DNA of 64,000 bases, from positions 18,822 to 82,821 of IMG/VR virus record IMGVR_UViG_3300012950_001127, one strand, 5' to 3'. The translations under genes were made by a program, and so were the position numbers. The DNA comes from a virus. Shown here in pieces: positions 36,122 to 63,657 of the stretch (positions within the stretch are counted from its first letter, which is position 1; each line of letters starts with the position of its first letter). Under the pieces are notes generated by a model, which saw only the letters and a list, made by a program, of their open reading frames with translations, was not told the origin of the DNA and ran no database searches.

Positions 36122-36604
36122 ATGTCTGAAATAGACGAAGTGCTTATTAAATTATTTCGCGAACAGTCTTCTGACCCTTCCGATAAAAACGTATTACCTT
36201 TAGATGGTGGCGTTAAAATAAAAAAGATTGCGTTTGATATGTTTAAGGTGTTGGACGACAAACATGAAGACTTGTGGAAAGTAGAGAGCATCGATGGGGC
36301 TGATTTTTTAGTTAGATGCACAGACACTCCTTCGTTGCAAGTCAAGGAGAGTGGAGATTGGTCTGCAGTTGCTAATTACGATTGCGACAATGTAACTCTT
36401 TCATATAAGAGTGTTCCAATTTGCGCTTTTTCGTCCGACGAGTATGAGTTCGATAAGAATAGTATTTTTTCATTTAAATCGGCTCTTTTAGATATTGTGG
36501 AGGAAGATAGCCACTTTGTTAAGAATGTTATTGCTAGTCAGCCAAGTGCAAAAATTGAAGTTTTAAGTAATATTTTCCCCGAAATAAAAGAAATAATAAA
36601 GTAG
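36122..36604 (+). CDS. Hypothetical protein, first gene of the head module
   Basis: GGGAG SD; preceded by TACTAAT and TATTAAT. Confidence 0.65.
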   Translation: MSEIDEVLIKLFREQSSDPSDKNVLPLDGGVKIKKIAFDMFKVLDDKHEDLWKVESIDGADFLVRCTDTPSLQVKESGDWSAVANYDCDNVTLSYKSVPICAFSSDEYEFDKNSIFSFKSALLDIVEEDSHFVKNVIASQPSAKIEVLSNIFPEIKEIIK

Positions 36605-36613
36605 GAAATTTAA

Positions 36614-38173: not shown

Positions 38174-38188
38174 AAACTGGAGTTTATA

Positions 38189-39475
38189 ATGAGCGGTAAG
38201 TTCGACAGAGGTTACAGAAAAAATAAATTAAAGAATATTACAAAGTTGGCCCTAGGGGATCAGCATGGAATATTTCAGCATTTTCAGTCTGATGTGACTG
38301 ATTACCCCTCTCGTGAACGCTATTTGTCAATGAGAGGTGGAGAGTCTACATCGAGAGATAGACTGTACGGGATAGGTCCAGAGCATGAAGACTCATATGT
38401 TCCGTTGGAACATACGGCTCGCTCTTTATCTACTCGTTACTCCCCAAATCGGTGCGGAGTGCAGGCCATGAGGGTTCCTGGGTCTAATGGCGGTGTATTT
38501 CAAGACCCGTATACCAAGAAGATTTACGATTATAACGAGGGATTTACCTTGGAGGATGGAACGTCATTTCCTGGAGGCAGCCCCGCTCTGCAGACCAGTT
38601 TGATGGGCTTTGCAAATCATTTGGACGAGTTGGGTTTATATAAAGAAGCAAATTATTTAGACAGTTTGATAAAAAGAGCGGGCGATCCAGCTGATGCGCT
38701 GTCAACAGAAGAGATCGTCAAGCTGGTGAGCTTTCTTAAGGCTCAAAAGCGACCCATAAGTGACTTAGCCAATGTTGATAGCAAGACCCCATGGGTTATG
38801 GATGCGTTAAATCCGGTTTCTGAAGAAGAAAGTTTAGATCCATTTGACATGATAACTGGCGAGCATAGCGCATCACCATCACCCGAGGGGCCTCTTGCAA
38901 GCGAAGATGGTATTATGTCAAAGCTTATTGCGGTAATGCCCGGGATGCAAGGCCGGGAAGCAGCCGATAAGATGAGGCACTTAGAGGCTATAAAGGAAAA
39001 GCTTCAATCAGATTCTGAAAAAGATATGGAAAGCGCAGGTTGGATGGCTCATCATATGTTACAGGGCGTGACCAGAACAGGCGGAGAAAGGCTAAACGCT
39101 TTTATGCTTATGCTTAAATTATTTTCAATGTGGGGAGGAGAGTTGGCTCATGACTTTTTTAAATCTAGAACAGAAGATATTGAGGCAGAGTTTCAAGAAG
39201 AGGGCAGATCTTGGTTCAAGAAGAGCGAAGGTCTTTCTAAAAACGTATTAGAGCATATGATAAAATTTGCTAATTATTTAGATTTTCACGGGCTTCGCAA
39301 TGAAGCTAATTATTTAGATTTGCTTCTGAAGAAAAACGCACAAGAAGAGGCGGAGCCTCAGCATTATTTGACAGATGTCGCAAATTCTTTAGACAACAGA
39401 GGTCTTTATAGAGAAGCTGACTTTTTGGATGCCTCAATCAAGAGGGCTCAGGCAGCAGCCAGTTTATCTTCATAA
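38189..39475 (+). CDS. Putative internal head protein with three helical tag repeats
   Basis: ANHLDELGLYKEANYLD, ANYLDFHGLRNEANYLD and ANSLDNRGLYREADFLD. Confidence 0.7.
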   Translation: MSGKFDRGYRKNKLKNITKLALGDQHGIFQHFQSDVTDYPSRERYLSMRGGESTSRDRLYGIGPEHEDSYVPLEHTARSLSTRYSPNRCGVQAMRVPGSNGGVFQDPYTKKIYDYNEGFTLEDGTSFPGGSPALQTSLMGFANHLDELGLYKEANYLDSLIKRAGDPADALSTEEIVKLVSFLKAQKRPISDLANVDSKTPWVMDALNPVSEEESLDPFDMITGEHSASPSPEGPLASEDGIMSKLIAVMPGMQGREAADKMRHLEAIKEKLQSDSEKDMESAGWMAHHMLQGVTRTGGERLNAFMLMLKLFSMWGGELAHDFFKSRTEDIEAEFQEEGRSWFKKSEGLSKNVLEHMIKFANYLDFHGLRNEANYLDLLLKKNAQEEAEPQHYLTDVANSLDNRGLYREADFLDASIKRAQAAASLSS

Positions 39476-43435: not shown

Positions 43436-45118
43436 ATGAATAAAAAATTTACAACATCATCAGTTTACAGAGAGCCTCAAAGTTCTGATTCAACGATTTA
43501 TATCGAAAAAGAAGCTCAGTGGCAAAGACAGGTAGGCGAAGCGGCCGGCCGGTTCGGGGAAGCCCTTAGGGGCTCTGAGGGCAGGGAGCAAAGGACTAGA
43601 GCTAGATGGAATCGGCAAGACGAGAGCACATCTGGTAGGCGCGACCGGCGAGACCAAAGAGAGGCGGGTTCTGACCAAAGAAGAGAAAATAGACGGGAAA
43701 GACAAGATCTGTCTAGAGAACAAGGAAGGTCTTATAGCCCTTGGAATCAAAATGATGCTCGTGTAGATCGTAAGCGTGAGCGCCAAGATGCTGGCGAGGC
43801 GGCTTCTGACCAAAGAAGAGAAGATAGACGAGAAAGACAAGATCTATCTAGAGATCATTCTAGAGAAGAATACGCCCAAAGGCAAGGATGGGGCGATTAC
43901 GGCCAGGCCTCGGACGCAGCAGCAGGAGGCGCAGCCGAGATGGCAGAGTCACCATTGGGTCAACTGGCTTCGGATCGTCCACCCACCGTTAATAACCCAG
44001 AGTCTATGCAGGCCTTAGAAGAGGCTGCCGCCGCTGATACTGCGGCGGACTCACAATGGCCCACCACCGTTAATAACCCAGAGTCTATGCAGGCCTTAGA
44101 AGAGGCTGCCGCAGCAGATGCTGCGAGCTCTAACGCGAATGATGGCGTAGTTTATGTAGAGGGAGTAAATAACGCAGCAGATTATATGTTAGATGATGCT
44201 TTAGGCCTGGGCGGAGGTGACGTTGTCTTCGTGGAAGAAGTGTCAGAGAATATTCCCCTTCCTCTTGAAGAAGTTACTTTTCAAGAAGGTCCGACCTCGG
44301 GGCATGAAATGAAAGATTTAAGCTTAGGAGACGTTGTAGATGGCCTAGCAGATGTTTTAGATGACGCAGGAGACCTCGGAGAAGAGTTTGAGAAGCTAAA
44401 GAAGTATGTTCCTGGAACTCAAATGGACGAAGATGAATTAGATGACGCGCCAAAGGCAGAGACAAATTATTTAGATGACGGAGATTTGTCTAAGTTTTTG
44501 GGACATATTACAGAGCAGTATCCGGCAAACATACCTCAACATGACGGCAGAAGTCAGTTGGGCTGCGAAAGAGCTGTTAGCTGGCTTGAAAGACTTAATA
44601 GTGAAATTTCTAAAAATATTCGTTTAGACACAGACAATTCTTTAGACTCAGATATACATAAGCTTGAAGAAATTCGTGTAAATGTTATGCGAGATATTCT
44701 TGTTCTCAAAAATCACTTAGCTAAATTAAAGAAGAGATTTAAAGAAGAAAACAAGAAGAGCGCATCTTTGGATATAGACGGAATACCAAGCTGGACAAGC
44801 TCTGGCGGAGATGAGGTGGAATATTCCGACCTAAAAAAGGAGGCCTCTACGCCAAGAAAGATGGTTATTGCAGTGCCCCCATTTCAGAGGGCTATAACGG
44901 GAATTCTAATCAACGCGCATATCTCTGGAGGCCATCCAATGGAAGATGTTTATGAGTTTTTGTCAAAGAAGTATTCCATAGAGCCACGTGAAGAACTTGC
45001 AATAATGCAGGTGTGCATGGATAGTGGGTTCCCCATCTTTAAAGACAGAGGAACTTACTCTGGAGGATCAAAAGATTCTAACAAGGCCATGGATTTTGTA
45101 AGGAATTATTTTGCATAG
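43436..45118 (+). CDS. Putative head protein with a low-complexity Arg/Gln/Ala-rich insert
   Basis: KEAQ, KKSAS and KKEAS sites; internal DNA repeats. Confidence 0.65.
   Translation: MNKKFTTSSVYREPQSSDSTIYIEKEAQWQRQVGEAAGRFGEALRGSEGREQRTRARWNRQDESTSGRRDRRDQREAGSDQRRENRRERQDLSREQGRSYSPWNQNDARVDRKRERQDAGEAASDQRREDRRERQDLSRDHSREEYAQRQGWGDYGQASDAAAGGAAEMAESPLGQLASDRPPTVNNPESMQALEEAAAADTAADSQWPTTVNNPESMQALEEAAAADAASSNANDGVVYVEGVNNAADYMLDDALGLGGGDVVFVEEVSENIPLPLEEVTFQEGPTSGHEMKDLSLGDVVDGLADVLDDAGDLGEEFEKLKKYVPGTQMDEDELDDAPKAETNYLDDGDLSKFLGHITEQYPANIPQHDGRSQLGCERAVSWLERLNSEISKNIRLDTDNSLDSDIHKLEEIRVNVMRDILVLKNHLAKLKKRFKEENKKSASLDIDGIPSWTSSGGDEVEYSDLKKEASTPRKMVIAVPPFQRAITGILINAHISGGHPMEDVYEFLSKKYSIEPREELAIMQVCMDSGFPIFKDRGTYSGGSKDSNKAMDFVRNYFA
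43661..44112 (+). repeat. Two in-frame direct repeat pairs: 43661-43719/43796-43854 (59 bp, 4 mismatches) and 43983-44031/44064-44112 (49 bp, exact)
   Basis: Read directly from the sequence. Periods are 135 and 81 bp, both multiples of 3. Confidence 0.85.
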
Positions 45119-45127: not shown

Positions 45128-45715
45128 ATGAAAGTAAAAAGACAAAATATTAGCGAAGAATATAATACAACGGTTGATTGGATTAATGATTTTTCAAATA
45201 ATTTAAATAAAAATGCTGATTATTTGACTAATCTTAAATCCATAATGAAAAGTAGAAATGATTTTTCATCTACAGATGAGAAGATTGCAGATCTAAAAAG
45301 TAGGGTCGGATTTGACTTAATAAAGAATGTTCAATTGTCGGAAGGCAAAAATATAAAATCAGCTTCATGCGCATGCGGAGGTTCTTGCAATTCATGCCAA
45401 ATGAAATCGCATTATGGAGAAGACGCTTTTGAAAAAGTTAGAAATATTGTCAAATATATTGGAGATTTAGTAAGTGATCGACCTGATGCAAGCTTGCCTA
45501 TGATACTTTCTGAATGCAGAGAAAATCCTGAATTAGGCTTTTCTAACTTGGAAGGCATGATTGATCCGGTTCAATTAAGAGATTTAATAACAAAACTAAC
45601 TAGTAAACACGAAAAAGTTCAGGACAAAGTAGAATATATACCTCAGGCTGAAATATCAGTTGTTAATGATGATGATGTTGCCGACTATATTAACCATGCA
45701 AGTCCTGGATCGTAA
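45128..45715 (+). CDS. Hypothetical protein upstream of terminase
   Basis: KSASCACGGSCNSC Cys cluster; TAATG overlap with terL. Confidence 0.65.
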   Translation: MKVKRQNISEEYNTTVDWINDFSNNLNKNADYLTNLKSIMKSRNDFSSTDEKIADLKSRVGFDLIKNVQLSEGKNIKSASCACGGSCNSCQMKSHYGEDAFEKVRNIVKYIGDLVSDRPDASLPMILSECRENPELGFSNLEGMIDPVQLRDLITKLTSKHEKVQDKVEYIPQAEISVVNDDDVADYINHASPGS

Positions 45716-47496
45716 TGCTTCAAAAAAAAAATGCAAAAACTCAAGAGCAGCTTTTTGAGCAGCTAAAAACTAGTTTTTTAGATTTTGATCCAGCAAATTT
45801 TGTTCAAAATAATTTAACTTTAGACGGCGCAGAGTTTAAAGTTTTAGATAATGGATGGAAGTTTATGGCCGATATATATCGGTATATTGCTTTGCAGGCC
45901 ACAAGAAGAGACGGAAAGCCAGTTGTTATAAAGAAGGGTCGCCAGGTCGGGGCGACCGTTATGGCAGGCGCTCTTGATTTATTTTTTACGAATAGCGGCC
46001 TGTTTGACAAGCCAAATGTTAGGGTTGTTCATCTTTTTCCGGCTTTAGGTCAGGTAAAAAAGTTTTCGCAAGATAAGCTTGAAACTTTAATCAGAACAGC
46101 TAAAGATGATTTTGTAAATAAAAATAAATTAATAAGCTCAAATTCTGTTGATAATTTAACCATGAAGCAGTTTAACAAAGGCACTTTGTGGATAGATAGT
46201 TTAGGCACAGATGGTGATAGAATTCGTGGTATGACGGCGGATATAATCTTTTTTGACGAAGTTCAGGACATGTTTGGTCATGCCATTGGAAATGCTACAA
46301 AGATTTTAACGGCAGCAAAATATGGCCCAACCGGTCAGGGCGTTCAAGTCTTCTTTGGAACGCCAAAAGATAAAAGTAGTTATTTTTCAACCATTTGGGA
46401 TATGTCAGATCAGAGATATTATCACTTGGGTTGTATAAACTGTAAAAAAACGTATCCTTTTTATCTTCCCAACGATGATCGCTGGAAATCTATTTGGCTA
46501 TATGAAAATACAATTCAGTGCCCCTTGTGTGGCACAAAGCAAAAAAAGGTAGAAGCGATAGAGTACGGCAGATGGGTTGGCGCTAAGAATGCAGAAGAGG
46601 CCGAATTTGTTGGATTTCACCTGAATCAGCTTTATATTCCTTATTTTACAAAAGAGAATATAGAAAAATTAATGCCTGAAAATAATCCATCTCAAACTGA
46701 ACGAATTTGGCATAATGAAGTTATAGGTGAATTTTATTCTGGGGCGGGGATGCCTTTGACCAAGCGTGATATATATAATAATTGTAGAGATCCGGATCGT
46801 GAATTTGCAAAGAGTATTGGCGCAAATGAAAAAACAGTTTATCTTGGCGTGGATTGGGGAGGAAAAGATGATGACCCAAACTCTCGGGGCGGACAATCTT
46901 TTTCGTGTGTTGTAATTTTGTCTGCTCAGCCAGACGGAACTCTTTTAATCGAGCATGCACATAAGCTTAAGAAGAATACATTTGATTATAAAAAAGATAC
47001 AATAAAAGAGATGTACAGGCGATTCGCTGTAACGCGAGGGGTGTCAGATTGGTTTTTTGGACAAGATGTAGTGCATGATATTCAGGTTATGTATAGAGAT
47101 CGATTTATAGGAGCTCAAGGCAGTGGCAGCCTGATAAAGCCAATAAAGTATAGAGAAGATGAATTAATTGTATCTTATAATAAAGACCTTATGATTGAAG
47201 AGTTGTTTGATTTAATTAGAAAGGGTAGGATTAGATTTCCATGGAAAAGCTATGAATATATTGAGTGGTTAATAGATCATTGTACATCAATGGAATCTAA
47301 AATAAGAGTAACGGCAGGACAGCCAATAAAATCTTTTCAAAAAGGCGTTGGGCCAAATGATGGATTAATGGCATTAATGTATGCATATATTGCTTATAAA
47401 TTTGATGCAACAAAAGGCTTTACTATTAAGCCGGGATTATATAAGCCGACACGATATCCAAATCCTGTATTGGCAAAAGTTAAAAGGAGAGTTTAA
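45715..47496 (+). CDS. terL: Terminase large subunit (lambda GpA-like, with zinc finger)
   Basis: KGRQVGAT, IRG, FFDEVQD, GTP, CxxC...CPLC, LGVDWG and NDGLMA; immediately upstream of the portal. Confidence 0.9.
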   Translation: MLQKKNAKTQEQLFEQLKTSFLDFDPANFVQNNLTLDGAEFKVLDNGWKFMADIYRYIALQATRRDGKPVVIKKGRQVGATVMAGALDLFFTNSGLFDKPNVRVVHLFPALGQVKKFSQDKLETLIRTAKDDFVNKNKLISSNSVDNLTMKQFNKGTLWIDSLGTDGDRIRGMTADIIFFDEVQDMFGHAIGNATKILTAAKYGPTGQGVQVFFGTPKDKSSYFSTIWDMSDQRYYHLGCINCKKTYPFYLPNDDRWKSIWLYENTIQCPLCGTKQKKVEAIEYGRWVGAKNAEEAEFVGFHLNQLYIPYFTKENIEKLMPENNPSQTERIWHNEVIGEFYSGAGMPLTKRDIYNNCRDPDREFAKSIGANEKTVYLGVDWGGKDDDPNSRGGQSFSCVVILSAQPDGTLLIEHAHKLKKNTFDYKKDTIKEMYRRFAVTRGVSDWFFGQDVVHDIQVMYRDRFIGAQGSGSLIKPIKYREDELIVSYNKDLMIEELFDLIRKGRIRFPWKSYEYIEWLIDHCTSMESKIRVTAGQPIKSFQKGVGPNDGLMALMYAYIAYKFDATKGFTIKPGLYKPTRYPNPVLAKVKRRV

Positions 47497-47499: not shown

Positions 47500-49191
47500 A
47501 TGAGACGAGTTAGTAGGCCCCCCACAAAGATTTCCAAAAAAGCTGCAAATTCTATATCTGAAGTCAGAAGAGCTCAGATTACTGATGCTGCCAATAAGAA
47601 GATGGATGCAGATAATGAATTAGGCTTTAAAGCATCCGTAGCACATAGCCCCAATTTTTCTAAGATTGGCTCTATAGCAAGCCCTATGCCTGGGCCGTCA
47701 GCTTCATCAACTACAGATCGATTATCTCCAGAAATTTATTCTCCGTTATTTCAGCTTGCAAATTTAAATCTACCTCGTGATCGAGTTACGATGAATGCCT
47801 GGAATAGGGTTTTTTACGATACTCATCCGATGGTTAGAAACGCAATAAATCTTCACGCTTCTTACCCAATTAGCAAAATAAACATAACTTGTAAAAATAA
47901 AAAAGTGCAAGAATTTTTTATGCAGATGGCTGAAAAGATTGATCTTTACTCCATTGTATATGGTGTAGCCTTAGAGTTTTGGAAAATGGGCGAGGCGTTT
48001 CCGTATGGAGAGTTGGATGAAAACTCTGGAACATGGAGCAGAATAACTGTTTTAAATCCAGACTATGTACATGTAAAGAAGTCTGTCATTGGAAATCACA
48101 CAATGATATCTTTAAGGCCAGACGCAAATTTGCAAAGAATTGTAAATTCTTCTTCTCCGTCTGATTTGTCTATGAGGAAGCATATTCCAAAACATATTAT
48201 ACAATATGTAAAGAAGGGGCAAAATATACCGCTTGATTCTTTTAATATTTCACACTTAAAGCTATTAAGCTCTCCATACGATGTCAGAGGAACCTCTGTA
48301 TGCGTATCTATATATAAAGATTTAATGCTTTACGATAAATTTCGCGAGTGCAAATTTGCTCAAGCAGACGGAATGGTAAACCCGCTAACCTTGGTAACTT
48401 TGGGCGGAGAGGGAGATTATAGAGCTACGCAGGCCGATATTGAGGCGTTTAAAAATGTTTTAGAAGAAGCGCAATATGATAAAGATTTTAAGATAGTAAC
48501 ACATAATGGTGTTAAGATTGAAAGAGCAGGATTTTCAGGAGGGCTTGTAGATATAGGGACAGACATTGAGCACATTGTTACAAACCTGTACGCTGGCCTT
48601 ATGGTTCCTAAGGCGCTGATGGACCAAGAATCTGCAACGTATGCAAGCTCCTCTGTGGGGCTGGATGTTTTGCGGCAAAGATATGATATTTTTAGAAATA
48701 TGATAAAAAAGTGGTTAGAAAGAAAGGTGTTTGCTCCAATTTGTGAGCTTCAGGACTTCTTTGAATATAAAGATGGAGAGAAAAGACTTTTGATTCCATC
48801 AATTGATTTTAATCATATGAATCTTTATGATATGTCTGATTATGTAACAAATATATCTCAATTTGTTGGAAATAAGCAAGTTTCTCTTCAAACTTTGCAT
48901 AGAAGCCTTGGGTTAAGCTACGAGGAAGAGCGAAGAAGAATTAGAGAAGAGATGATAGATGAGCAAGTTTTTGCAAAAGAGCAACAAGTTTTGGGGAACA
49001 TGAGATTGTCAGAGCTTTTGACAATAGATCCAAACAAAACTATTCAAGAGCCGCCAGAGGGTGCTGCGCCAGGAGGAGGCGAGGGGCTCCCCGGAGTTCC
49101 TCCCGGTGGCGGACCTCCTCCCGGTGGACCTCCTCCCGGCGGACTTCCTCCCGGTGGACCTCCTCCTGGCGGCGGGCCGCCTGAGTTATAA
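47500..49191 (+). CDS. Portal protein with a (GGPPP)n tail
   Basis: Follows terL; HP.V.NAI.L, GEAFPY, VLNPDYV, PY..RGTS, GL.VPKAL and VSLQTL...LGL.YE.E portal-like pattern. Confidence 0.8.
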   Translation: MRRVSRPPTKISKKAANSISEVRRAQITDAANKKMDADNELGFKASVAHSPNFSKIGSIASPMPGPSASSTTDRLSPEIYSPLFQLANLNLPRDRVTMNAWNRVFYDTHPMVRNAINLHASYPISKINITCKNKKVQEFFMQMAEKIDLYSIVYGVALEFWKMGEAFPYGELDENSGTWSRITVLNPDYVHVKKSVIGNHTMISLRPDANLQRIVNSSSPSDLSMRKHIPKHIIQYVKKGQNIPLDSFNISHLKLLSSPYDVRGTSVCVSIYKDLMLYDKFRECKFAQADGMVNPLTLVTLGGEGDYRATQADIEAFKNVLEEAQYDKDFKIVTHNGVKIERAGFSGGLVDIGTDIEHIVTNLYAGLMVPKALMDQESATYASSSVGLDVLRQRYDIFRNMIKKWLERKVFAPICELQDFFEYKDGEKRLLIPSIDFNHMNLYDMSDYVTNISQFVGNKQVSLQTLHRSLGLSYEEERRRIREEMIDEQVFAKEQQVLGNMRLSELLTIDPNKTIQEPPEGAAPGGGEGLPGVPPGGGPPPGGPPPGGLPPGGPPPGGGPPEL

Positions 49192-51564: not shown

Positions 51565-52422
51565 GTGTCAAGAATCTCTAAAATAAATTTTCTTCATAAG
51601 CTTGCTTATCTAAATAAGAGTGCGACAGGGCCGATGAGTCTGGAAGATTTTTTAGAAGTAACAAGATCTGGAGCGGATATTGCAGATAACGCTGTAGATT
51701 ATGTTCAAAAGGCAGGGGTGTCTTTAGAGGAGTTTATAGACAGCTTGAGCGATCTATCGGGAGAATATGAGGCAATTAACAATAGTTTATTTTCAGAGAT
51801 TAGAGCATTGCCGAGGCCAGAGAGGCCTGAGGCAGTGGGGGTTGTTTCTCCAGAGTTAGAAAGCAGATATAGCGATTGGACTCTGGGCGGCCCCAAGAAA
51901 ACTCCTCCTAACTTTCACAGGGTAGAGGGGGGCAACAATAATTATAGAAGCGCTCAACCTCCGAATGAAGAGGGTTTTTATAAATTTTTAAACGAAAAGT
52001 ATGGAATTGAAAATATTATTAGTTTAAATTCAAAGAATCATAGCAGTTCCGCTGGCGCTGCCGGCCTTGGATATTTGCATGTTCCGCTTAGCAGCAGGCC
52101 CCCGTCTCGGTCAGATTGGAGTATGATCAAAAGCTTGTTGTCTCAGGGCAACACTCTTGTTCATTGTACACATGGCGCAGATAGAACAGGGGGAGTCATT
52201 GGAAGGTATAAGGTTGAAGAGATGAATGTAGACCCAACTATAGCTCACAATGAATCCTTAGAGTATGGGTTTAAGTCTCAAGATCATCCAGGCTGGCCAG
52301 AGCGGTGCGATGATATGCCTGTAGGTGCGCCAGAAGAAGTAGCTGAGAAGCAAGAGTGTATTGATGATTCTGCCGATCCAAACAAAAGGCTTAGAAATTT
52401 TATTTATCATGGACACAGATAA
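51565..52422 (+). CDS. Dual-specificity/tyrosine (CX5R) phosphatase with an N-terminal K-x-A leader
   Basis: NFHRV...YRSAQP, GI..IISL and the P-loop VHCTHGADRTG. Confidence 0.88.
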   Translation: MSRISKINFLHKLAYLNKSATGPMSLEDFLEVTRSGADIADNAVDYVQKAGVSLEEFIDSLSDLSGEYEAINNSLFSEIRALPRPERPEAVGVVSPELESRYSDWTLGGPKKTPPNFHRVEGGNNNYRSAQPPNEEGFYKFLNEKYGIENIISLNSKNHSSSAGAAGLGYLHVPLSSRPPSRSDWSMIKSLLSQGNTLVHCTHGADRTGGVIGRYKVEEMNVDPTIAHNESLEYGFKSQDHPGWPERCDDMPVGAPEEVAEKQECIDDSADPNKRLRNFIYHGHR

Positions 52423-55048: not shown

Positions 55049-58000
55049 ATGTTAAAGAAGATTTGTTTTTCGCCAAAAAATGTAATAGAAACGCATGACA
55101 AGCAAGAAGTGCTTGTTAATAACGATCTAGTTGCAAGGATGACTAAGTTGGCGAATAACCTTAGGGCAATTTCTCCAAAGTCGGATGATTTTTTATATTT
55201 CTCTATTATATTTTTAAAATCAGCAGAAGCAGCACTTTTAGATGAGAAGGGTCTTCCGAAAAAGGTCGCAAACGGAGAAACCGCTTGGGGCTTTTTTGAT
55301 GAAGAGTGGAAATGGCACGGAAATACTCAGCCTCATAGAAATAACAATAGAGATATTTTTCCAGAATCAGAATTAAAGAAGGCGGCAGCCTCTTGGGTCG
55401 GTCTGCCTTTGTGTAAGGACCATGAGTCAAGTTCCGTAGATGGAATACGCGGCATAATTCTCGATACACACTATGATGAGAAATATAAGCAAATTATAGG
55501 ACTTTGCGCTTTAGACAAAGTTAACTATCCGGATTTGGCGAGAAAAGTAGAGACTGGACTGGTTAGGTATGGCTCTATGGGAACTGCCGTAGAGACATCT
55601 GTTTGTTCTGAATGTTTAAATAAAGCTACGACACAAGAAGAGTATTGTGCTCATATTTTAAACAAAACAGCGCATGGAGAAATAAATGTTGGGTTAAAGC
55701 CTATAGAGTATAGTTTGGTGGTGCAGCCAGCCGAGCCTGGCGCAGTATTGTTAAAGTGTATAGCATCTTTGACAGATTACAGAGATGAATTTATAAATTA
55801 TGGCGTAGATAATGTAGAAAGCATGTTGGGCAAATTAAGTTTGCCGCAAGCAAAACATTTAGAAAAAATAATGAAAACTGCTTGTGGTGAAAATGGCTGC
55901 TCAATAGGGCAAAGACAAGATATAGTTTCTAGTTTTCTTGATAACAATGGATTGTTAAAAACATCTACAGATGATTTTACAGATATGTCTCAAAAAGATA
56001 GAAATACTGCAGAAACTATAAATGCAGTTAGTCAGGCGGCCAATGTTGTAACTGACCCTGGAGTGCCTCAAAATATAAAAAGCGTTATAAGCAACCTTAT
56101 AAGCAGACTGGATCAGTCTAAAACTTCAACTCAACGCGTTACAGGTTACGAAGACCAAGAAGGCACAAGTCTTCCTGGGGATGTTAAAGATTATAGTGGA
56201 AATACTAGAATGAATATGTTTGGAAGTGGGGGAGATGAATTCCCTGGTCCAGATTTTTCTGAGAAAGATTTATTAAACCAAACCCCTCCTATGGGAGGAG
56301 GGGAGCCCTTAGTAGGATTTGCTTCTGAAGAGGGCAAGCTCGCCGCCAAAACGGCAAGCGACAATAATTACGTAGACGACAAGTCAATTAATTCATTAGT
56401 GGAGGATATTATGAACGAGTCAAGATTAAGAAAAAGAGCTGAGTTACGTCGTCGTATTGCTTATTATCAAGGCGGCGACAATGTTAGCGACAAGAATTGG
56501 AGAGAGCCCAGTGGGTTCAAGAGCGAAAATTATACAAACACAAGGGACAAGCAAGATAAGCAAATGCTTGGAACATATGAGTTCAATCAGCAAGAAAGCC
56601 AAGATCTCGCGGCGAAAGAAAAGCTGAGCCGAGCGCAGCTTCAGGACAGAAGAATGCGTCGTGTTGCGTATATGCAGGGCGGAGCAGAAGGGGTTGAGCC
56701 AAGTGTCTTTAAGTCTGAAGACTATAAGAAGTATAGAGACAATATGGACAAGCAAATGCTGCAAGGCAAGTCTATGGGTGGACCCTCGGGATCATTCCCT
56801 GGAGATGAAGGAGTAAAAGAAGGCTTAAAGAGAGCTTCGTATGACCGTGGCGGATTTACCAAGTCTGCATATAATGGCCCTTCGTTAAGTACAAGATTTA
56901 GTGTTCGACGCAATCCAAATGGATCTGTAGATCACTACGGAAGTACTTTTGAAGTTTTTGCCGGAAATAAGCGTGTTCTTGCCGCAACTGCTGGAGAAAT
57001 TTACGGAACCGAACTTCCTGCTAATTGGGCATGGCTAAACAGCCAAACTTATGGGCAAGAAGTTTGCAAGCAAATTCGTGCTAGCGGACTTCCTAGTGTT
57101 GCAAGGCTTCTTAAGTCTGCACAGGCAGGGCCACCTCCGGGACCTCCGATGGACGGACCACCTCCGGGAGCCGATATGGGCGGACCACCTCCGGGAGCCG
57201 ATATGGGCGGACCACCTCCGGGACCTCCGGGGCCGCCGATGGACGATATGGGGCCGCCGATGGACGATATGGGACCACCGATGGATGGGCCCCCAGGAGA
57301 GGACGAAGAGGCAGAAGAGACTCCGTCAGAGGCCATTGAGGGCCGCTTAACAGAGATGGAGCAACTCCTTAGCGAAGTAAGAGATCTTGTTGGACAACTT
57401 GAAGATGAAAGTCTTGCAGATGTTGATGTAAATGTATTTACAGGTAAGGACAAAAATGAGCCTGGAGCAGAAGCGGGCGGCGCTGAAGGAGAAATGCTCG
57501 CATTGTCTTCTCAGGTCTCTAATGAGCTTAAAAAGGTTTTTGCTCAACTTGACGAATCTGCCGACGAGCTTTCAATGGTTGCGGAGACATATGATAATAT
57601 CTCTAAACTCTCTAGAGGCCAAAGATCCCGATTTGTTAAGCTTGCCTCTGATGCAGTTAAGGATGCAGATAGTGTAATTGGAGAAACAAAGGCTCTAGTT
57701 AGAGTTGCTAATTCTTCTGGATTGAAAAAGTTTGCACAGAGTAGAGCTGCAAGAAGGAGCGGCAGACCTAGCCAAAGAAGAGTTGCCACCAAAGCTGCTC
57801 CCAGCCAAACAGGACAAGTTAACACTCTTGTGTCCGAAGCAATGACGCTTAGAAGAAACAGAAGAGGCGCTATTTTAAAGCAGGCAGAAGGAAGAATTCT
57901 TTCGCAAAGAGCCGCAAAGAGATCGGCTTTGCTTAGAAATGCAAATCAGAAAGCTGCCACAAGGACTGCGGTTAGACAGCAAAGGGTTGCTAGCCCAGCG

Positions 58001-58402
58001 CCGACTCGTCCCAATGTTGCTCCAAATGTAGTAAAGAATGCCGCTCAAACCTCTGAGGTTCAGAAGGCATTGTCTAATAAGCTAAATGCAAAGAGAGCAG
58101 ATGAGGAGAGAGAGTCGTACAGAATTAAGTTGCGTAGAGCTTATGATGTTGGGCTAGAGATGCAAAATAAGGGTCTCTTGGTACAGACGAAGACAGCGCT
58201 TGATAAGCAGGTTGATGAGATAATGTCCTTTGATGATAGAGCTTTTGAAGCGTTCAAGAGAAGCATTGGAAATGCTAGACCAGTTAGAAACATGAAAGTT
58301 GCTTCCGATTTAGGTGGAATTAATATTGGAGTTGAATCAGACGCCAATACTCAGCCTAGCGCAACCAATACCGTAGATGTTTTAACATCTATGTGGGAAT
58401 AG
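55049..58402 (+). CDS. Prohead maturation protease (HK97/assemblin-like, with zinc ribbon) fused to a scaffold
   Basis: N.N.D.F...EL, KDH, RG.ILD, SMG, CSEC..YC.H and EYSLV..PA, followed by a long coiled-coil/Pro-rich region. Confidence 0.8.
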   Translation: MLKKICFSPKNVIETHDKQEVLVNNDLVARMTKLANNLRAISPKSDDFLYFSIIFLKSAEAALLDEKGLPKKVANGETAWGFFDEEWKWHGNTQPHRNNNRDIFPESELKKAAASWVGLPLCKDHESSSVDGIRGIILDTHYDEKYKQIIGLCALDKVNYPDLARKVETGLVRYGSMGTAVETSVCSECLNKATTQEEYCAHILNKTAHGEINVGLKPIEYSLVVQPAEPGAVLLKCIASLTDYRDEFINYGVDNVESMLGKLSLPQAKHLEKIMKTACGENGCSIGQRQDIVSSFLDNNGLLKTSTDDFTDMSQKDRNTAETINAVSQAANVVTDPGVPQNIKSVISNLISRLDQSKTSTQRVTGYEDQEGTSLPGDVKDYSGNTRMNMFGSGGDEFPGPDFSEKDLLNQTPPMGGGEPLVGFASEEGKLAAKTASDNNYVDDKSINSLVEDIMNESRLRKRAELRRRIAYYQGGDNVSDKNWREPSGFKSENYTNTRDKQDKQMLGTYEFNQQESQDLAAKEKLSRAQLQDRRMRRVAYMQGGAEGVEPSVFKSEDYKKYRDNMDKQMLQGKSMGGPSGSFPGDEGVKEGLKRASYDRGGFTKSAYNGPSLSTRFSVRRNPNGSVDHYGSTFEVFAGNKRVLAATAGEIYGTELPANWAWLNSQTYGQEVCKQIRASGLPSVARLLKSAQAGPPPGPPMDGPPPGADMGGPPPGADMGGPPPGPPGPPMDDMGPPMDDMGPPMDGPPGEDEEAEETPSEAIEGRLTEMEQLLSEVRDLVGQLEDESLADVDVNVFTGKDKNEPGAEAGGAEGEMLALSSQVSNELKKVFAQLDESADELSMVAETYDNISKLSRGQRSRFVKLASDAVKDADSVIGETKALVRVANSSGLKKFAQSRAARRSGRPSQRRVATKAAPSQTGQVNTLVSEAMTLRRNRRGAILKQAEGRILSQRAAKRSALLRNANQKAATRTAVRQQRVASPAPTRPNVAPNVVKNAAQTSEVQKALSNKLNAKRADEERESYRIKLRRAYDVGLEMQNKGLLVQTKTALDKQVDEIMSFDDRAFEAFKRSIGNARPVRNMKVASDLGGINIGVESDANTQPSATNTVDVLTSMWE
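56411..58402 (+). CDS. Probable nested, separately translated scaffold protein (663 aa)
   Basis: In-frame ATG at 56411 preceded by GGAGG (56401-56405) and AATTAAT (56386-56392). Confidence 0.55.
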   Translation: MNESRLRKRAELRRRIAYYQGGDNVSDKNWREPSGFKSENYTNTRDKQDKQMLGTYEFNQQESQDLAAKEKLSRAQLQDRRMRRVAYMQGGAEGVEPSVFKSEDYKKYRDNMDKQMLQGKSMGGPSGSFPGDEGVKEGLKRASYDRGGFTKSAYNGPSLSTRFSVRRNPNGSVDHYGSTFEVFAGNKRVLAATAGEIYGTELPANWAWLNSQTYGQEVCKQIRASGLPSVARLLKSAQAGPPPGPPMDGPPPGADMGGPPPGADMGGPPPGPPGPPMDDMGPPMDDMGPPMDGPPGEDEEAEETPSEAIEGRLTEMEQLLSEVRDLVGQLEDESLADVDVNVFTGKDKNEPGAEAGGAEGEMLALSSQVSNELKKVFAQLDESADELSMVAETYDNISKLSRGQRSRFVKLASDAVKDADSVIGETKALVRVANSSGLKKFAQSRAARRSGRPSQRRVATKAAPSQTGQVNTLVSEAMTLRRNRRGAILKQAEGRILSQRAAKRSALLRNANQKAATRTAVRQQRVASPAPTRPNVAPNVVKNAAQTSEVQKALSNKLNAKRADEERESYRIKLRRAYDVGLEMQNKGLLVQTKTALDKQVDEIMSFDDRAFEAFKRSIGNARPVRNMKVASDLGGINIGVESDANTQPSATNTVDVLTSMWE

Positions 58403-58411: not shown

Positions 58412-59452
58412 ATGTATAGCATGAGAGAAAATGGAGATTCTATTGCCCATGAGTTTTTAAAACTCTTGGGTGATTCCCCCAGCTTCCAAAAGGAAGCTGG
58501 GATCATGGACGCCGCAAGGTCAGCAGCAGAGTCAATGGGCCAGCAATCAGGTGGCAATGTTGGCGCGGATTCTGTTAAACAGGCTCAAGGTGTACTTGGG
58601 GTTGAGCAAGATGGAGTTATGGGACCACAAACTGAGGCTGCTTTAAAGCAGTGGCAGCAGAATAATGGCTTAACTGCAGATGGTGTGTTAGGCCCGCAAA
58701 CCCTTGAGGCTATGGGGATTGGGCAAAACAGCGCTGGTCAAAGCATCCAGGATGCGGCTGCAGCCGTTGGGGGTGTGGCGAAGAGTGTTGGACAGACCGT
58801 TCAAAACGCTGCAAATGCCGCAGCTAACTGGGGAAACTGGGCGAATGATGGTCAGACTGATTATCTAGCTGATGACAAAGTTGCAGGCTTATTTGTAAAT
58901 CCAGGAAGTAAAAAGCAAAGTGTAAATATGAATATGCTTGATGATCAGATAAAGAGCCACGCATTCGTTAAGAGCATAGCGATAGTTGCTTCAGAGCTTA
59001 ACAGAAGAGGTCTTACAAAAGAGGCTCATTATATTTTAGATTCTGTAGCCAAAGATCAAACAAGAGCGTTTTTGAGCAATGTTTTCTCTACAGCCACAGT
59101 TCTTAGCAAGAGGGGTTTGGCAAAAGAGGCACATTATCTATTAGATTCTGTTATGAAGGCTAAAAAGAGAGCACAAAGAGTCCCTCAAAGGCTCGCTCCA
59201 AAGACTGCCAATCATCATATTGTAAATGGTCTGAATAAGATTGCACATAGCTTGCGCTCTAAAGGTGAAAACTTCGCGGCAGATGTAGTTAATGCAACTA
59301 CTCTTAGTATAGTGACTGACCTTAAGAAAGAAGCTGCAAAAAAAGGCAACATTTCTAGAACCTTGTTAAAGATGGCTAGAGAGTTTGATAGAAGCGGAGA
59401 TACTTTCGCCGGAGATATGGTGAGAACTACCTTGCTTAATCTTCAGAAGTAA
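58412..59452 (+). CDS. Head-module protein with a PG_binding_1 domain and four helical tag repeats
   Basis: DGVMGPQTEAALKQWQQNNGLTADGVLGPQT; RRGLTKEAHYILD and KRGLAKEAHYLLD. Confidence 0.75.
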   Translation: MYSMRENGDSIAHEFLKLLGDSPSFQKEAGIMDAARSAAESMGQQSGGNVGADSVKQAQGVLGVEQDGVMGPQTEAALKQWQQNNGLTADGVLGPQTLEAMGIGQNSAGQSIQDAAAAVGGVAKSVGQTVQNAANAAANWGNWANDGQTDYLADDKVAGLFVNPGSKKQSVNMNMLDDQIKSHAFVKSIAIVASELNRRGLTKEAHYILDSVAKDQTRAFLSNVFSTATVLSKRGLAKEAHYLLDSVMKAKKRAQRVPQRLAPKTANHHIVNGLNKIAHSLRSKGENFAADVVNATTLSIVTDLKKEAAKKGNISRTLLKMAREFDRSGDTFAGDMVRTTLLNLQK

Positions 59453-60319: not shown

Positions 60320-60727
60320 ATGTTTAATTCTTGGTCCAAAGAAGATATATCTCATTTCGAAAAAAGTGAAGTTATGCAAGAATTCGAAAAAAGAGTTATA
60401 GAGAATTTGCATAGATTAGCTATTTTGAATAAAAAAGCCCAAGCTGAGGGAGCTGCTGAATTAAAGGAAGTAGAGAATCAGGCTAATGAGACTGCAGAGG
60501 CCCTGAAGGGTGTTGCAGAGGAGCAGGCGAAGCTTAACCCTGCTGATGATGATCCAGAAAAGACAGATGAAACTGCAGAAGACGGCTTAGCCGACAAGAG
60601 TGCTGTTGTAGAAGAGCTTAGAGAGATGATTAAGGCGGCGATGTCAAATAATAATATTAAGCTGGCTTATAAAATAGAGCGCACTATTGACGAGATTTTG
60701 GAGCAAAGCGTAAAATGCGAATTGTAA
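60320..60727 (+). CDS. Hypothetical acidic helical head-module protein
   Basis: GGAG SD, TACTAAT upstream, KKAQ site. Confidence 0.65.
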   Translation: MFNSWSKEDISHFEKSEVMQEFEKRVIENLHRLAILNKKAQAEGAAELKEVENQANETAEALKGVAEEQAKLNPADDDPEKTDETAEDGLADKSAVVEELREMIKAAMSNNNIKLAYKIERTIDEILEQSVKCEL

Positions 60728-63657
60728 AAAATTCAGAAGCAAGCCTGTTTGATGACTATGTAGCTACAATGCTGCAATTTGATAACAAAAGAAATAATCA
60801 ATTTTTGGTGAAAACTGCCGGGGATCGTGTCTCATTCTTTAGGAAGCTTCTCGGCATTGGTGATGATGTTGTTGATATTGGAAACAGATCTGCGAGATAT
60901 GGAGATAAGGCGCTTGACGCAGAGAGGGCTGCCAAAGTTGGCGTAGATGCAACAGAGGCGGTTTCTAGAAGCGGTATAGATATTGCTGAAGTATTTGTAG
61001 ATGGAGCAGCGGGCGCAAAGGCTTTAGCGTTTGACATTCAGACTTCAGCAAGACAACTGCAGCAAGATGGTAGAAATATTTCTAACTTAGAAGAGTTTTT
61101 GCATCAAGAAATTAGAAACAGTCCGCATGTTACTGCTGCCGGAAAGGCTAATCCAGATGATATTATAAGGTATTTAAGTGGCGAAGAGGTTCGGGCGGCA
61201 GTGCGTAGTAGCACAGAAGTGGTGCGCGCCATGGGCCTGCTCGATGATGTTCAGGCCGATGCTCTGCTCAGAGGCGAGCACATTCCCGCCGGAGGAGGCC
61301 TTACGCCCGTGAATCAAGGACAGAGGTTGTCCACATCCGATATGCATGCAGATGATATGGCGTTGCTTGCAGAAAGAGGCTTTTTGCCTAATAAACGCTA
61401 TGTGTGGGATGACAAGCTTAGGGGCTGGGTAGAGCTTGGCGCAGACGGTAGAACGGCAGTGCCAGGAAGTCAGCACATTGTAAGAGCAGAAGAGGGAAGG
61501 CGTCTTTTAACTGTTGATGAGGTTACAGATTGGGTAAGTGCGACGAGGGGAGTGCAGGATCGGGTACCCCGGCAAACTATCGATGTTGTGGATGTTGTGA
61601 ACACGCCGACTCACAGGGCTTTAACAAACGGTGATTATAGAGGATTCAGCGATATTGCAGGAAATATGCACTCTTCTCCCGCCTGGAGAAGACTGACTGC
61701 TGAGCAGCGTCAAGCTGCAGATTATTTCATAAGACAGGGCGCAGAACTATCAGATTCGACTAGAAAACTTGTCGCTGCAGGCGAGCGTGTTAGAAGCGTT
61801 CGTAGTCAAGCGGAACTTGATCGTGCCATTGCCGAGTTTGCAGAAGCTGCTGCAGATCTTCAGCGGAAGCAGCAATATTATGGACGAGCCTATGAGGATG
61901 CCCGCCGGCAAGGATTAGAGGCTGCTCTGCCACATATTGCTCACATGGAATCCGTCGTCGGCCGGTATGCCGATGAAGCAGCTGAAGTTATTCGGATTGA
62001 AAGAGAGGCTCTTAATGCAGAACGCGCTGCACATAATGGCAGGGTTGATGATTTTAATAATGCACAGCGAGCGGGCGAAAGTGGTCTTGCAGAAAGATTA
62101 GCTAAGCTTGAAGCAGATGAAGTTGCACTCAAAGCAAGGCAGGAAAAACTTGTAGCAGATGAAGCTGCACTCGAAGCGCAAAGGGCTGCAGATGCAGCTG
62201 CTCCACGGCCAACGGGCGGCGAACCAGATCCTAAGTCGGTTCGTGGTCAGACCAATGCCGCATCAGAAGGGGCGGTCGATGATCTGGCTGCCGCCAAACG
62301 CACCTTAGAAGAGGCTCATATCGCCAATGGAAAAACTCCTGCACAAGCTAGGGCATTGGCAGATGAAGCGTTTCAAGTTGCAGGGGCACGATCAGGGCTG
62401 TCTGGAACGACTAAGCTTGCATTAGCTGGTGCTGGCGCATGGGGAGGATGGAAGTGGGGAGTGTGGGGCAAGCTCGCAGCGCTTCTTGGCATAGGCGTTG
62501 GAGGATACGCTCTTTACAACTATCTTTCTGATGATGAAGAAGATTCTAGCGGAGCAACAGGCGGCGGCGGTCCAGGCGGCGGCAGCGGGGGAGGAAGAAG
62601 AGATTACGGTCATCGAGTTGCAGATCCTACGACGGGTGAGCCTACCACTGTTTCGAGAATATATCAACAGGGACGGTGGGAAGATCTTAATACTCTGTTG
62701 AATAACAGCCCTGGAGACATCGCTCTTCATGATGCTGTTAGAAGCGCATATGGAAAATCTTATAAGGTTGAATTGCCAGGGCCATTTGACGGTGAGGGTC
62801 AGGATCTTAGATATGCATTTATAAATAGAACACTTGGTGCCAGAGGGCCTATAGACAGAGAGGGGCTTAATAGATCCGCTTTAATTGAGCTGGTTTATTC
62901 TTCTCTTATGGACCCTCAAACTGGTGGAGCACAATATGATCACTACCTTACAAAGGTGACAAAAAATCCAATAACAAGAAGGCCAAATGCACAAATGGCC
63001 TTGAACGAAGCATTTGAGGAAGTTATGGGCAAAGGACTTTATGAGAGAGGACTCTTCGGAGGGACAGGTCCCGGAAGAAGAAGAACCAGAAGAGATATGG
63101 CGGGAAGAAGCTTAAACGCAGGCCCAGGATATGCTGGAGCCCCTGCTCAAGATATGAGCAGAGCAGAGCGCGGAGCGCTCCGTCGCAGATATAATAGAAC
63201 GGCAGAAGATGAAAGCCGCTTTGATGAGATTAAGAAATTCACAGAGTTATCAATGAATTCTATTAATAATGATGATACATCTGAGTTCTTTAACAAGAAA
63301 GCAGATAAATTTTCCAATTCCTATTACAAAGATGCAGTAAATGGTCTAAGTGGTGGAGATGAGGAGTTAAAGTCTTATTATACTGGGCTGGGAAGACTGT
63401 ATAACAAGAAGCGTAAGAAACCAAAGGCTGATTACGATAAACTGTACGACGTGTCCGAAGGGACAGGAGTTGATTTGATACATGCCGCACATCCAAAAGC
63501 AATTGTTGTTTTAGATTCGATTGGACGAGGCGGATTAGTAGAGAATGGACTTGAACAAAAACGTCAAACACATGGTGTGGCTTTAAGTACACCGACTGGT
63601 AATTTTAGAGCAAATTACGCGTGGTTACGCGATGCTTTGAATAAAACAAGTAAATAG
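60715..63657 (+). CDS. Large Ala/Arg-rich protein with coiled coil and hydrophobic hairpin; putative ejected/internal virion protein
   Basis: LVKTAG near the N-terminus; LALAGAGAWGGWKWGVWGKLAALLGIGVGGYALYNYL; RTAED near the C-terminus. Confidence 0.65.
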   Translation: MRIVKNSEASLFDDYVATMLQFDNKRNNQFLVKTAGDRVSFFRKLLGIGDDVVDIGNRSARYGDKALDAERAAKVGVDATEAVSRSGIDIAEVFVDGAAGAKALAFDIQTSARQLQQDGRNISNLEEFLHQEIRNSPHVTAAGKANPDDIIRYLSGEEVRAAVRSSTEVVRAMGLLDDVQADALLRGEHIPAGGGLTPVNQGQRLSTSDMHADDMALLAERGFLPNKRYVWDDKLRGWVELGADGRTAVPGSQHIVRAEEGRRLLTVDEVTDWVSATRGVQDRVPRQTIDVVDVVNTPTHRALTNGDYRGFSDIAGNMHSSPAWRRLTAEQRQAADYFIRQGAELSDSTRKLVAAGERVRSVRSQAELDRAIAEFAEAAADLQRKQQYYGRAYEDARRQGLEAALPHIAHMESVVGRYADEAAEVIRIEREALNAERAAHNGRVDDFNNAQRAGESGLAERLAKLEADEVALKARQEKLVADEAALEAQRAADAAAPRPTGGEPDPKSVRGQTNAASEGAVDDLAAAKRTLEEAHIANGKTPAQARALADEAFQVAGARSGLSGTTKLALAGAGAWGGWKWGVWGKLAALLGIGVGGYALYNYLSDDEEDSSGATGGGGPGGGSGGGRRDYGHRVADPTTGEPTTVSRIYQQGRWEDLNTLLNNSPGDIALHDAVRSAYGKSYKVELPGPFDGEGQDLRYAFINRTLGARGPIDREGLNRSALIELVYSSLMDPQTGGAQYDHYLTKVTKNPITRRPNAQMALNEAFEEVMGKGLYERGLFGGTGPGRRRTRRDMAGRSLNAGPGYAGAPAQDMSRAERGALRRRYNRTAEDESRFDEIKKFTELSMNSINNDDTSEFFNKKADKFSNSYYKDAVNGLSGGDEELKSYYTGLGRLYNKKRKKPKADYDKLYDVSEGTGVDLIHAAHPKAIVVLDSIGRGGLVENGLEQKRQTHGVALSTPTGNFRANYAWLRDALNKTSK

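Follow-up and report, generated by a model that had tools for sequence, protein, structure and literature searches.

A Lys-x-Ala motif concentrated in the head-module proteins of a phage G-like virus, a candidate prohead-protease processing signal

We analysed a 64,000-nucleotide stretch of DNA (hereafter the window; bases 18822-82821) from a single 82.8-kb virus contig, IMG/VR record IMGVR_UViG_3300012950_001127, whose protein similarities mark it as an uncultured large phage that is a relative of Bacillus megaphage G. Proteins encoded by its head module carry a short motif, a hydrophobic residue followed two positions on by Lys and two further on by Ala ([LIMF]xKxA, the strict pattern), far more often than their composition predicts. 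On balance, we favour the view that this motif is a processing signal cut by the S78/S77-like protease-scaffold protein encoded at 55049 in the same module (proteins are named here by the window position at which their open reading frame, ORF, begins). The motif is probably part of a capsid-targeting signal as well. We infer the cleavage, the enzyme and the scissile bond from sequence comparisons. An earlier note on this DNA had reported the looser pattern [LIVFM]x[KR]xA in the head module, and had proposed that the 55049 protease cleaves after K-x-A and thereby turns head genes into polyproteins that release separate cargo domains. The observation is confirmed and is stronger than first stated, whilst its interpretation is partly supported.

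Results and Discussion

Enrichment of the motif in the head module

The long ORFs of the window all lie on the + strand, and the two sets compared were picked by hand from this + strand chain. The head module comprises 22 ORFs (8949 amino acids, aa) with starts at or after 36122, and the comparison set comprises the other 30 window ORFs (11532 aa). Expected counts were derived from within-protein shuffles, which keep composition. All 19 of the peptide strings quoted in the earlier note are present in the ORFs named there, and the loose pattern is found 67 times in the head ORFs against 22.8 expected (z 10.3), a count reached in none of 300 shuffles. In the other ORFs it is found 30 times against 24.8 expected (z 1.1; 51 of 300 shuffles reach 30). 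The claimed enrichment thus holds when corrected for composition. Moreover, when all residue pairs at gaps of 0-5 are scanned in the head set, KxA ranks second (96 vs 48.6, z 6.8) and is outranked only by GxP, which stems from Pro-rich repeats; KxA is not among the top 12 pairs in the non-head window proteins over the same gaps.

Scanning the single positions of the motif in the head set sharpened its definition. At the basic position Lys is enriched 4.2-fold and Arg just 1.4-fold, and Arg occupies only 12 of 604 residues at the conserved sites described below. Equivalence of Lys and Arg is therefore ruled out, and the motif is Lys-specific rather than K/R as first written. At the small position Ala is enriched 3.0-fold, with Ser and Gly at approximately 1.1-fold, and at the hydrophobic position Leu, Met and Ile reach 3.4- to 4.1-fold, Phe 2.4-fold and Val 0.8-fold. 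The residue directly after Ala (+1) is preferentially Gln, His, Tyr or Asn. The strict pattern that follows from these scans occurs 50 times in the head ORFs against 9.8 expected (z 13.9), compared with 14 against 12.6 in the other window ORFs. At least one strict copy is present in 15 of the 22 head ORFs and in 11 of the 30 others, so that "nearly every head protein", as first claimed, is an overstatement, with no copy in the large terminase (TerL), 49227, 59573, 39546, 40222, 42078 or 42996. Upstream of the window, 18.8 kb of the record hold 14 strict copies against 6.4 expected, and three proteins there have three or four loose-pattern sites apiece.

Related patterns show no comparable excess in the head set. 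The reversed motif A.K.[LIMF] is found 6 times (10.2 expected), the altered spacings [LIMF].KA and [LIMF].K..A 12 (10.2) and 16 times (9.3), and the form with Glu replacing Lys, [LIMF].E.A, 10 times (10.2). Nor are the consensus patterns of studied proteases enriched in these ORFs, be it the T4 type [LI].E (98 vs 89.3), the phiKZ type [SAG].E (155 vs 146) or the assemblin type [VLI].A[SN] (13 vs 19.1). A nucleotide-level motif was ruled out: the codons used for the Lys and Ala of the motif follow the module background and 23 different codons occur at the x positions, therefore the signal lies at the protein level. Clustering of paired tags was likewise ruled out as the main cause of the excess, given 10 spacings of at most 30 aa against 9.6 expected.

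Position of the sites within the proteins

A strict site ends within the first 40 residues of 13 of the 22 head ORFs, where 1.0 is expected (0 of 500 shuffles), and of 2 of the 30 other ORFs. The Ala of these leader sites is mostly one of residues 15-40; a few proteins have it earlier, at residues 6-8. The sites of the individual proteins are given in Table 1. Their placement, at N-terminal leaders, in the scaffold, at the N-termini of portal and major capsid protein (MCP) and in the linkers of 52484, supports the assignment of these proteins as putative prohead-protease substrates.

Table 1. Features of the head module and occurrence of the strict motif in their families. Positions are those of the window unless a contig is named; a slash precedes the residue that follows the motif. 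Orthologue counts leave out hits of at least 98% identity and hits covering less than 50% of the query.
Feature	Position	Strand	Matches and motif sites	Orthologues in family	Strict-motif enrichment in family
160-aa protein	36122..36604	+	leader site IKKIA/F aa33; motif in 47/48 sequences	47	6.3x
Head-module protein, 519 aa	36614..38173	+	5 strict sites: aa 33, 53, 137, 232, 453	51	7.8x
428-aa protein	38189..39475	+	5 strict sites, three within a repeated two-part tag	5	9.6x
Widely conserved protein, 543 aa	40416..42047	+	6 strict sites, including MKKVA/Y aa 118 and LKKIA/Q aa 348	58	4.7x
560-aa protein	43436..45118	+	IEKEA aa23, LKKEA aa466	27	4.5x
195-aa protein upstream of TerL	45128..45715	+	N-terminal site LNKNA aa26; motif in 35/52 sequences	51	3.7x
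Large terminase (TerL)	45715..47496	+	phrog_675, E 7.8e-62; 0 strict sites		
Portal	47500..49191	+	phrog_16240, E 2e-46; N-terminal site ISKKA aa11	41	2.5x
Two small proteins, 186 aa and 115 aa	50711..51560	+	one site each: ITKFA aa111, LIKKA aa21	29 (50711); 32 (51213)	4.3x (50711); 4.5x (51213)
CX5R phosphatase-like protein, 285 aa (weak Pfam matches, every one under the curated cut-offs)	51565..52422	+	LHKLA aa10, LNKSA aa16, both in the first 20 residues		
Multi-domain cargo candidate, 755 aa	52484..54751	+	IKKLA aa2, LNKTA 222, IVKSA 406, ITKKA 586	6	5.0x
Protease-scaffold fusion, 1117 aa; candidate processing enzyme	55049..58402	+	most motif-rich protein		
Putative protease domain, approximately aa 1-300	55049..56008	+	His125 (in DHES), Ser176 (in GSMGT)		
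LLKSA/Q site of 55049	57107..57121	+	ends a conserved block, directly before the scaffold Pro-rich linker		
PG_binding_1 protein, 349 aa	58403..59452	+	PF01471, E 1.4e-13, aa 64-104; leader site FQKEA aa28		
135-aa and 980-aa proteins	60320..63657	+	leader sites LNKKA aa36, LVKTA aa31		
Major capsid protein (MCP), 347 aa	L001:9642-10685, just past the window end		phrog_2522, E 3.4e-68		

The multi-domain protein 52484 consists of a DUF192 domain (aa 243-345; Pfam E 6.6e-20), which is flanked by two sites, followed by a HAD-like part and a helical bundle. Its AlphaFold2 (AF2) model, built from five sequences, has a moderate mean predicted local distance difference test score (pLDDT) of 56.5. 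Three of its four sites (2-6, 406-410 and 586-590) lie in low-pLDDT segments (1-72, 349-417 and 584-593), which are predicted linkers, and the sites between domains are kept in three to four orthologues as h-x-K-x-[AGS] (h, hydrophobic) with variable x. The claim that sites fall at domain boundaries is thus partly supported.

The N-termini of 52484 (52484-52510) and of the protease (55049-55075) are of one type, M-h-K-K-h-[A/C]-[W/F]-[P/S]-P, which is kept in orthologues, and the initiator Met occupies the hydrophobic position of the motif in 4 of 5 orthologues of 52484. A second recurrent element is a two-part helical tag, G-L-x-K-E-A-N/H-Y/F-L-D and, 10-23 residues on, h-x-K-x-A-G/Q, that is found in unrelated proteins (window 38636-38680, 39257-39340 and 59012-59245; record positions 5255-5350 and 6033-6125). 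In 38189 it takes the form L-x-K-E-A-N-Y-L-D ... h-x-K-x-A-G/Q, whilst the peptidoglycan-binding protein 58403 has five further sites after its leader site, within repeated RGL-x-KEAHY-LD tags. This tag may be the docking part of the leader.

The MCP gene lies on the viral contig L001, which is identical to the window contig and extends beyond the window end, encoding a 250-aa protein and then the MCP. Relative to gp27 of phage G, this MCP has an N-terminal extension of approximately 42 residues that contains IVKYA/S. A second MCP copy of the motif, MIK[RQ]A/L, falls within the region common to both phages, and its spacing is not preserved in phage G.

Conservation of the motif across the clade

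Searches for related loci yielded nine viral loci for the protease and 77 for the 40416 protein, on contigs of up to 332 kb. The loose motif is enriched in all seven loci tested (z 5.7-7.5), and the Lys-x-Ala signal persists in orthologues of 34-60% identity. Ten head-module families show strict-motif enrichments of 2.5x to 9.6x (Table 1). By comparison, the values are 0.4x for TerL, 0 for a RecA-like family, 1.3x for GroEL, 1.0x for RuvC and 1.5x for the tRNA nucleotidyltransferase. TerL serves as a negative control within the module, its 45 orthologues averaging 0.22 sites against 0.61 expected. The sole outlier among the comparison families is 34809 (2.9x), where the excess comes from a single site that looks like an ordinary fold element, since every position is conserved and Ala is present in just 57%.

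Alignment of the families gave 13 columns in which half or more of the sequences have the motif (hot sites). Conservation at these columns is 0.81 for the three core positions, 0.50 for the two x positions, 0.71 for +1 and 0.48/0.55 for the flanks. Lys is the most invariant residue (584/604, 97%). The small position (n=600) is Ala in 491, Ser in 67 and Gly in 25 sequences, and the hydrophobic position is Leu in 236, Ile in 187, Met in 97, Phe in 49 and Val in 15. Retention of the core whilst x positions and flanks drift is, in these alignments, the signature of a selected linear motif and not of shared folds.

Individual families illustrate this. In the 40416 family the MKKVA/Y column (reference aa 122) has the motif in 55 of 59 sequences and the LKKIA/Q column (reference aa 352) in 49 of 59, with Lys at 98-100%, Ala at 83-94%, +1 at 100% and the x positions at 22-41%. 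The aa 470 site of the 43436 family is present in 28/28 sequences though the mean column identity is 0.37, and the leader site of the 36122 family has Ala in 100%, Lys in 97% and Phe at +1 in 97%. The 51 orthologues of 36614 average 5.94 sites against 0.76 expected, with hot sites at reference aa 57, 444 and 457, and the five orthologues of 38189 average 3.4 against 0.35. The sites of the 186-aa and 115-aa proteins are kept in 28/30 and 27/33 sequences, with Lys at 100% in both. For the portal, the N-terminal motif occurs in 22 of 42 sequences and a second hot column in 25 of 42.

The protease-scaffold protein 55049

The most motif-rich protein of the module is also the candidate enzyme. Its 11 strict sites are MTKLA aa31, FLKSA 55, LKKAA 109, LNKTA 204, IMKTA 274, LRKRA 460, FTKSA 603, LLKSA 687, FVKLA 862, LKKFA 892 and ILKQA 942. 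Residues 113-209 match phrog_18299, head maturation protease (E 1.8e-11), and its protein-language-model neighbours in the Atlas carry Peptidase_S78 (PF04586), S78_2 (PF14550) and S77 (PF03420). Together, the PHROG match and the Atlas neighbours point to a place in the HK97/T4 prohead protease group. The earlier proposal that 55049 encodes a prohead-protease-like domain fused to a scaffold is upheld by these matches and by the similarity to phage G gp19 and gp21 described below. His125 and Ser176 are invariant in all six aligned sequences, and the DH and SMG elements also occur in phage G gp19; from their resemblance to known motifs, and not from a structure, we take these two residues to be the putative catalytic pair. 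The gene order is that of a prohead protease, with the protease-scaffold gene (55049) between the portal (47500) and capsid genes, the MCP gene lying beyond the window.

A profile search with the protease recovered 2099 relatives (E<=0.001), more than 1000 of them at E<=1e-10; the best are nearly all fusions of 1000-1500 aa. Of the 141 proteins P0041-P0181, the 131 that are at least 900 aa long served as protease-scaffold representatives. They contain 1098 sites against 285.8 expected (3.84x), with the reverse motif at 1.04; 100 of the 131 reach at least 3x, and all lie above expectation. The R-x-A form is enriched 2.7x in these representatives. At the LLKSA/Q site of 55049, [LI]LK[STN]AQ is kept in 5/5 orthologues and the flanks vary.

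Two further features of this family were observed. The scaffold part contains, at window 56420-56900, two tandem repeats of approximately 65 aa (R-R-x-A-Y-M-Q-G-G ... D-K-Q-M ... K-E-K-L-S-R-A), with many columns invariant across six sequences. Some protease homologues (P0033, P0040, P0048, P0053 and others) are 1400-1600 aa long with the protease match broken near residue 100; Hint/intein Pfam domains in P0033 and P0040 suggest that some members of the clade have an intein within this protease gene.

Phage G and more distant relatives

The same signal is found in cultured Bacillus phage G. The MCP is 49-50% identical to gp27 of this phage and the portal 32% identical to gp14, which has MAKQA at aa16. 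The protease domain is 31% identical to gp19 (aa 31-272 to gp19 41-274), an alignment that begins right at the motif, with MTKLA of 55049 aligned with LVKTA of phage G. The C-terminal part of the scaffold (55049 aa 1008-1073) matches gp21. Phage G encodes protease and scaffold in two genes, unlike the single fused gene 55049. Phage G head genes gp4-gp28 contain 20 strict sites against 6.6 expected (0/300 shuffles) and gp29-gp64 contain 8 against 4.4, and N-terminal copies of the motif occur in gp9, gp13, gp14 and gp20. The phage G MCP differs in having neither the first ~42 residues of the clade MCP nor a site. In the parts of two reports that name gp19 a head maturation protease, no cleavage site is given (PMC12484599; PMC5646251). 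A literature search, with supplementary tables outside its scope, found no description of a Lys-x-Ala prohead-protease motif or of a phage G cleavage site.

In more distant relatives the signal fades. Rhodococcus phage E3 shows no excess (3 vs 3.4 strict, 14 vs 11.5 loose) and Mycobacterium phage Catera has 7 strict sites against 4.1 and a weak loose excess (23 vs 10.9). A homologous protease-scaffold fusion is present in both, with no clear motif.

Proposed mechanism and comparison with known systems

If the motif is a processing signal read by 55049, proteins bound for the procapsid interior, namely internal or ejected cargo, the scaffold, the portal N-terminus and the protease itself, would carry it, usually as the last part of a leader some 7-40 residues long and in some proteins between domains too. 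Once assembly is complete, the N-terminal serine protease domain of 55049, of the HK97/T4 type, would bind the signal in extended form, with alternate side chains (hydrophobic, Lys and Ala) turned toward the enzyme. Cutting at or beside the signal would then remove leaders, chop the scaffold and free the mature proteins.

Herpesvirus assemblin cuts between Ala and Ser in [V/L/I]-x-Ala-Ser, its protease and scaffold are nested (UL26/UL26.5), and it belongs to a superfamily shared with phage prohead proteases. The phage protein resembles it in the small residue predicted at P1 (Ala) and in having the protease in frame with the scaffold, and differs in the obligatory Lys at -2 and the hydrophobic residue at -4. 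Two registers fit the motif and together hold most of the probability. A cut after Ala (P5 hydrophobic, P3 Lys, P1 small) would make the conserved +1 residue the new N-terminus, and is somewhat the likelier of the two because of the tolerance Ala > Ser > Gly and the assemblin precedent. A cut after Lys (P3 hydrophobic, P1 Lys) would place the most invariant residue at P1, and the register [LIM]-x-K would mirror the geometry of the T4 motif [L/I]-x-E cut after Glu (PMC12991175). The small remainder of the probability falls to a cut between x and Ala in K-x-A.

The likeness to T4 gp21 goes further. In both, a single short motif lies on the scaffold, the protease itself, the shell protein and packaged internal proteins, the sites mostly end short N-terminal leaders, and a hydrophobic residue stands two positions before a charged key residue. 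This key residue is Glu in the T4 prohead protease motif [L/I]-x-E (PMC12991175), whereas here it is Lys, with Ala two positions on; moreover, the protease here is fused to the scaffold, and Pfam gives no hit for it, its S78/S77 affinity coming only from PHROG and Atlas clusters. SPN3US gp245 and phiKZ gp175 process many head and ejection proteins at one consensus, mostly removing N-terminal propeptides (PMC10052503). Here too one consensus sequence with an N-terminal bias occurs on many head proteins. The phiKZ gp175 and SPN3US gp245 motifs are [S/A/G]-x-E and A-x-E, whereas [SAG].E is not enriched here and the clade is phage G-like.

Several observations weigh against processing by 55049. 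Searches of Pfam (E<=1) and of PDB sequences gave no match to its N-terminal ~300 residues, and the AF2 model of the protease, from a 6-sequence alignment, has a mean pLDDT of 40.6, which is too poor to confirm the fold. The conserved sites FLKSA 55, LNKTA 204 and IMKTA 274 lie in the presumably folded protease core, and in the AF2 model of 52484 the remaining site (222-226) is at the start of a strand. Conservation in homologues extends to the 13 hot columns but not to LKKFA 892 and VVKNA 994 of 55049, nor to either N-terminal site of 60320, of which the aa36 site is not kept in 4/4 orthologues; the near-identical loci L001, L004 and L008 were left out of this site-by-site check. The idea of a polyprotein releasing cargo domains fits 52484 in part. 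A multi-domain relative on contig L009 (726 aa), which includes a phosphatase domain (Pfam Y_phosphatase2, E 1.4e-06), has an N-terminal LSKRA/Q and one LVKSG but no inter-domain sites. The constant feature is therefore the N-terminal leader, and not cutting between all domains. Finally, an M16 peptidase and a DUF2201-vWA/MoxR pair are conserved in the clade and missing from the motif-poor E3 and Catera.

Alternative readers and roles of the motif

This last point raises the alternative that the signal is read by the phage M16 zinc peptidase, which resembles the mitochondrial processing peptidase (MPP), possibly together with the MoxR AAA+ protein and the DUF2201 metallopeptidase-vWA protein. 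We consider this unlikely. The 7-40-aa leader would then resemble a mitochondrial presequence and be cut between x and Ala in K-x-A, leaving Ala or Ser as the new N-terminus. Marginally less probable is the fuller version, in which the capsid protease is not the reader at all and M16 with the MoxR/vWA-metallopeptidase pair would carry out a presequence-style sorting and maturation of capsid cargo in phage G-like megaphages, parallel to or upstream of the prohead protease.

MPP follows an R-2 rule, with a basic residue two (R-2) or three (R-3) positions before the presequence cut. Both the length of the leaders and the placement of a basic residue at -2 agree with this rule. With the MPP (M16B) system the phage proteins share leaders tens of residues long in which a small residue follows a basic one at a distance of two or three positions, and the clade has an intact, conserved M16; the differences are that Lys is used here and not Arg, and that many sites are internal or in the scaffold. 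The genome does encode Peptidase_M16 and M16_C domains (E 5.5e-27 and 1.1e-26) beside a DUF2201_N/VWA and an AAA+ protein. HxxEH is intact in the M16 protein itself and in 5/5 orthologues, as are the zinc motifs in all orthologues examined. M16 was found in 8 of the 11 records searched, including phage G (gp2, beside terL and head genes), and is missing from the complete genomes of E3 and Catera and from one 24%-complete fragment. DUF2201_N is likewise present in 3 of 5 records (including phage G) and absent in E3 and Catera, so that phage G shares the motif enrichment in head genes as well as M16 and DUF2201. Moreover, for other jumbo phages Iyer et al. proposed that structural proteins are processed by the pair of MoxR and vWA-metallopeptidase proteins (PMC7824862).

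Against this, MPP prefers Arg, which is barely tolerated at the hot sites, and Catera has its weak loose excess without an M16. Outside phage G the M16 gene is about 40-50 kb away from the head genes. The M16 protein has 0 sites and no leader, so nothing suggests that it enters the capsid, whilst the proteins richest in sites are the scaffold and the protease, classic prohead-protease substrates that are degraded inside the shell. As all three peptidases co-occur with the motif, phyletic patterns cannot separate the prohead protease, M16 and DUF2201, and the phage collection, with just 11 records of M16 homologues, offers no informative outgroup. The prohead protease is favoured over M16 because the scaffold and the protease have the richest sites and must be cut inside the shell, and because the M16 protein has neither leader nor site.

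The three peptidase-related genes form a conserved cluster, MoxR-like AAA+, DUF2201 metallopeptidase-vWA (HExxH) and M16 (HxxEH), at record positions 15490-19028, which ends at window position 207; the M16 gene occupies 17775-19028. M16 and DUF2201 are adjacent in relatives as well.

Similarly improbable is that the motif serves purely for docking or capsid targeting, as a short strand or helix that the scaffold, the portal or the inner surface of the shell binds to load cargo and that stays uncut. Many copies sit inside the repeated two-part tag (L-x-K-E-A-N/H-Y-L-D ... h-x-K-x-A-G/Q) of unrelated proteins, the +1/+2 residues are often conserved like the core (Tyr-Pro, Gln-Glu, Phe-Asp), a number of sites are in folded parts, and N-terminal capsid-targeting sequences are used by T4 and P1 (PMC9024508). 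However, in T4 the end of the targeting sequence is itself a cleavage motif, so that a docking role does not preclude cutting. Docking by itself hardly explains the dense scaffold sites together with the copies at the extreme N-terminus (M-x-K-x-A-W-P), and the tolerance Ala > Ser > Gly resembles a small protease pocket.

That the excess is a functionless by-product of composition, helical periodicity or shared descent of a duplicated segment is very improbable: the head proteins are helix-rich and some sites lie in repeated tags and in the two tandem scaffold repeats, but the shuffles keep composition, the reverse motif and other spacings are flat, close spacings are no commoner than chance, and Lys and Ala are kept in unrelated families whilst x positions and flanks drift.

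Other features of the contig

The contig has no terminal repeat and its end falls inside a gene. Many of the proteins encoded at 36122-63657 match no family. A tRNA nucleotidyltransferase gene (window 42078-42926; phrog_2244, E 1.9e-17) lies among the head genes; 68 related loci keep it, and the motif is not enriched in it. Two divergent GroEL-like genes are present on this one phage contig, at window 31640-33292 and at record positions 1097-2704.

Conclusions

In summary, if the motif is a cleavage code, sequence alone would suffice to list which proteins are packaged, and probably injected, in a large clade that is mostly uncultured (represented here by 77 related loci, with contigs reaching 332 kb, and by the cultured 497-kb phage G), and to predict the ends of the mature proteins. 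Candidate cargo would then include a phosphatase-like protein, a DUF192/HAD-like protein and a peptidoglycan-binding protein. Given that phage G carries the same signal, the idea is directly testable at the bench. If true, it would bring a specificity based on Lys and Ala into a protease superfamily in which the phage members studied cut after Glu, and the short leader may serve as a capsid-loading tag.

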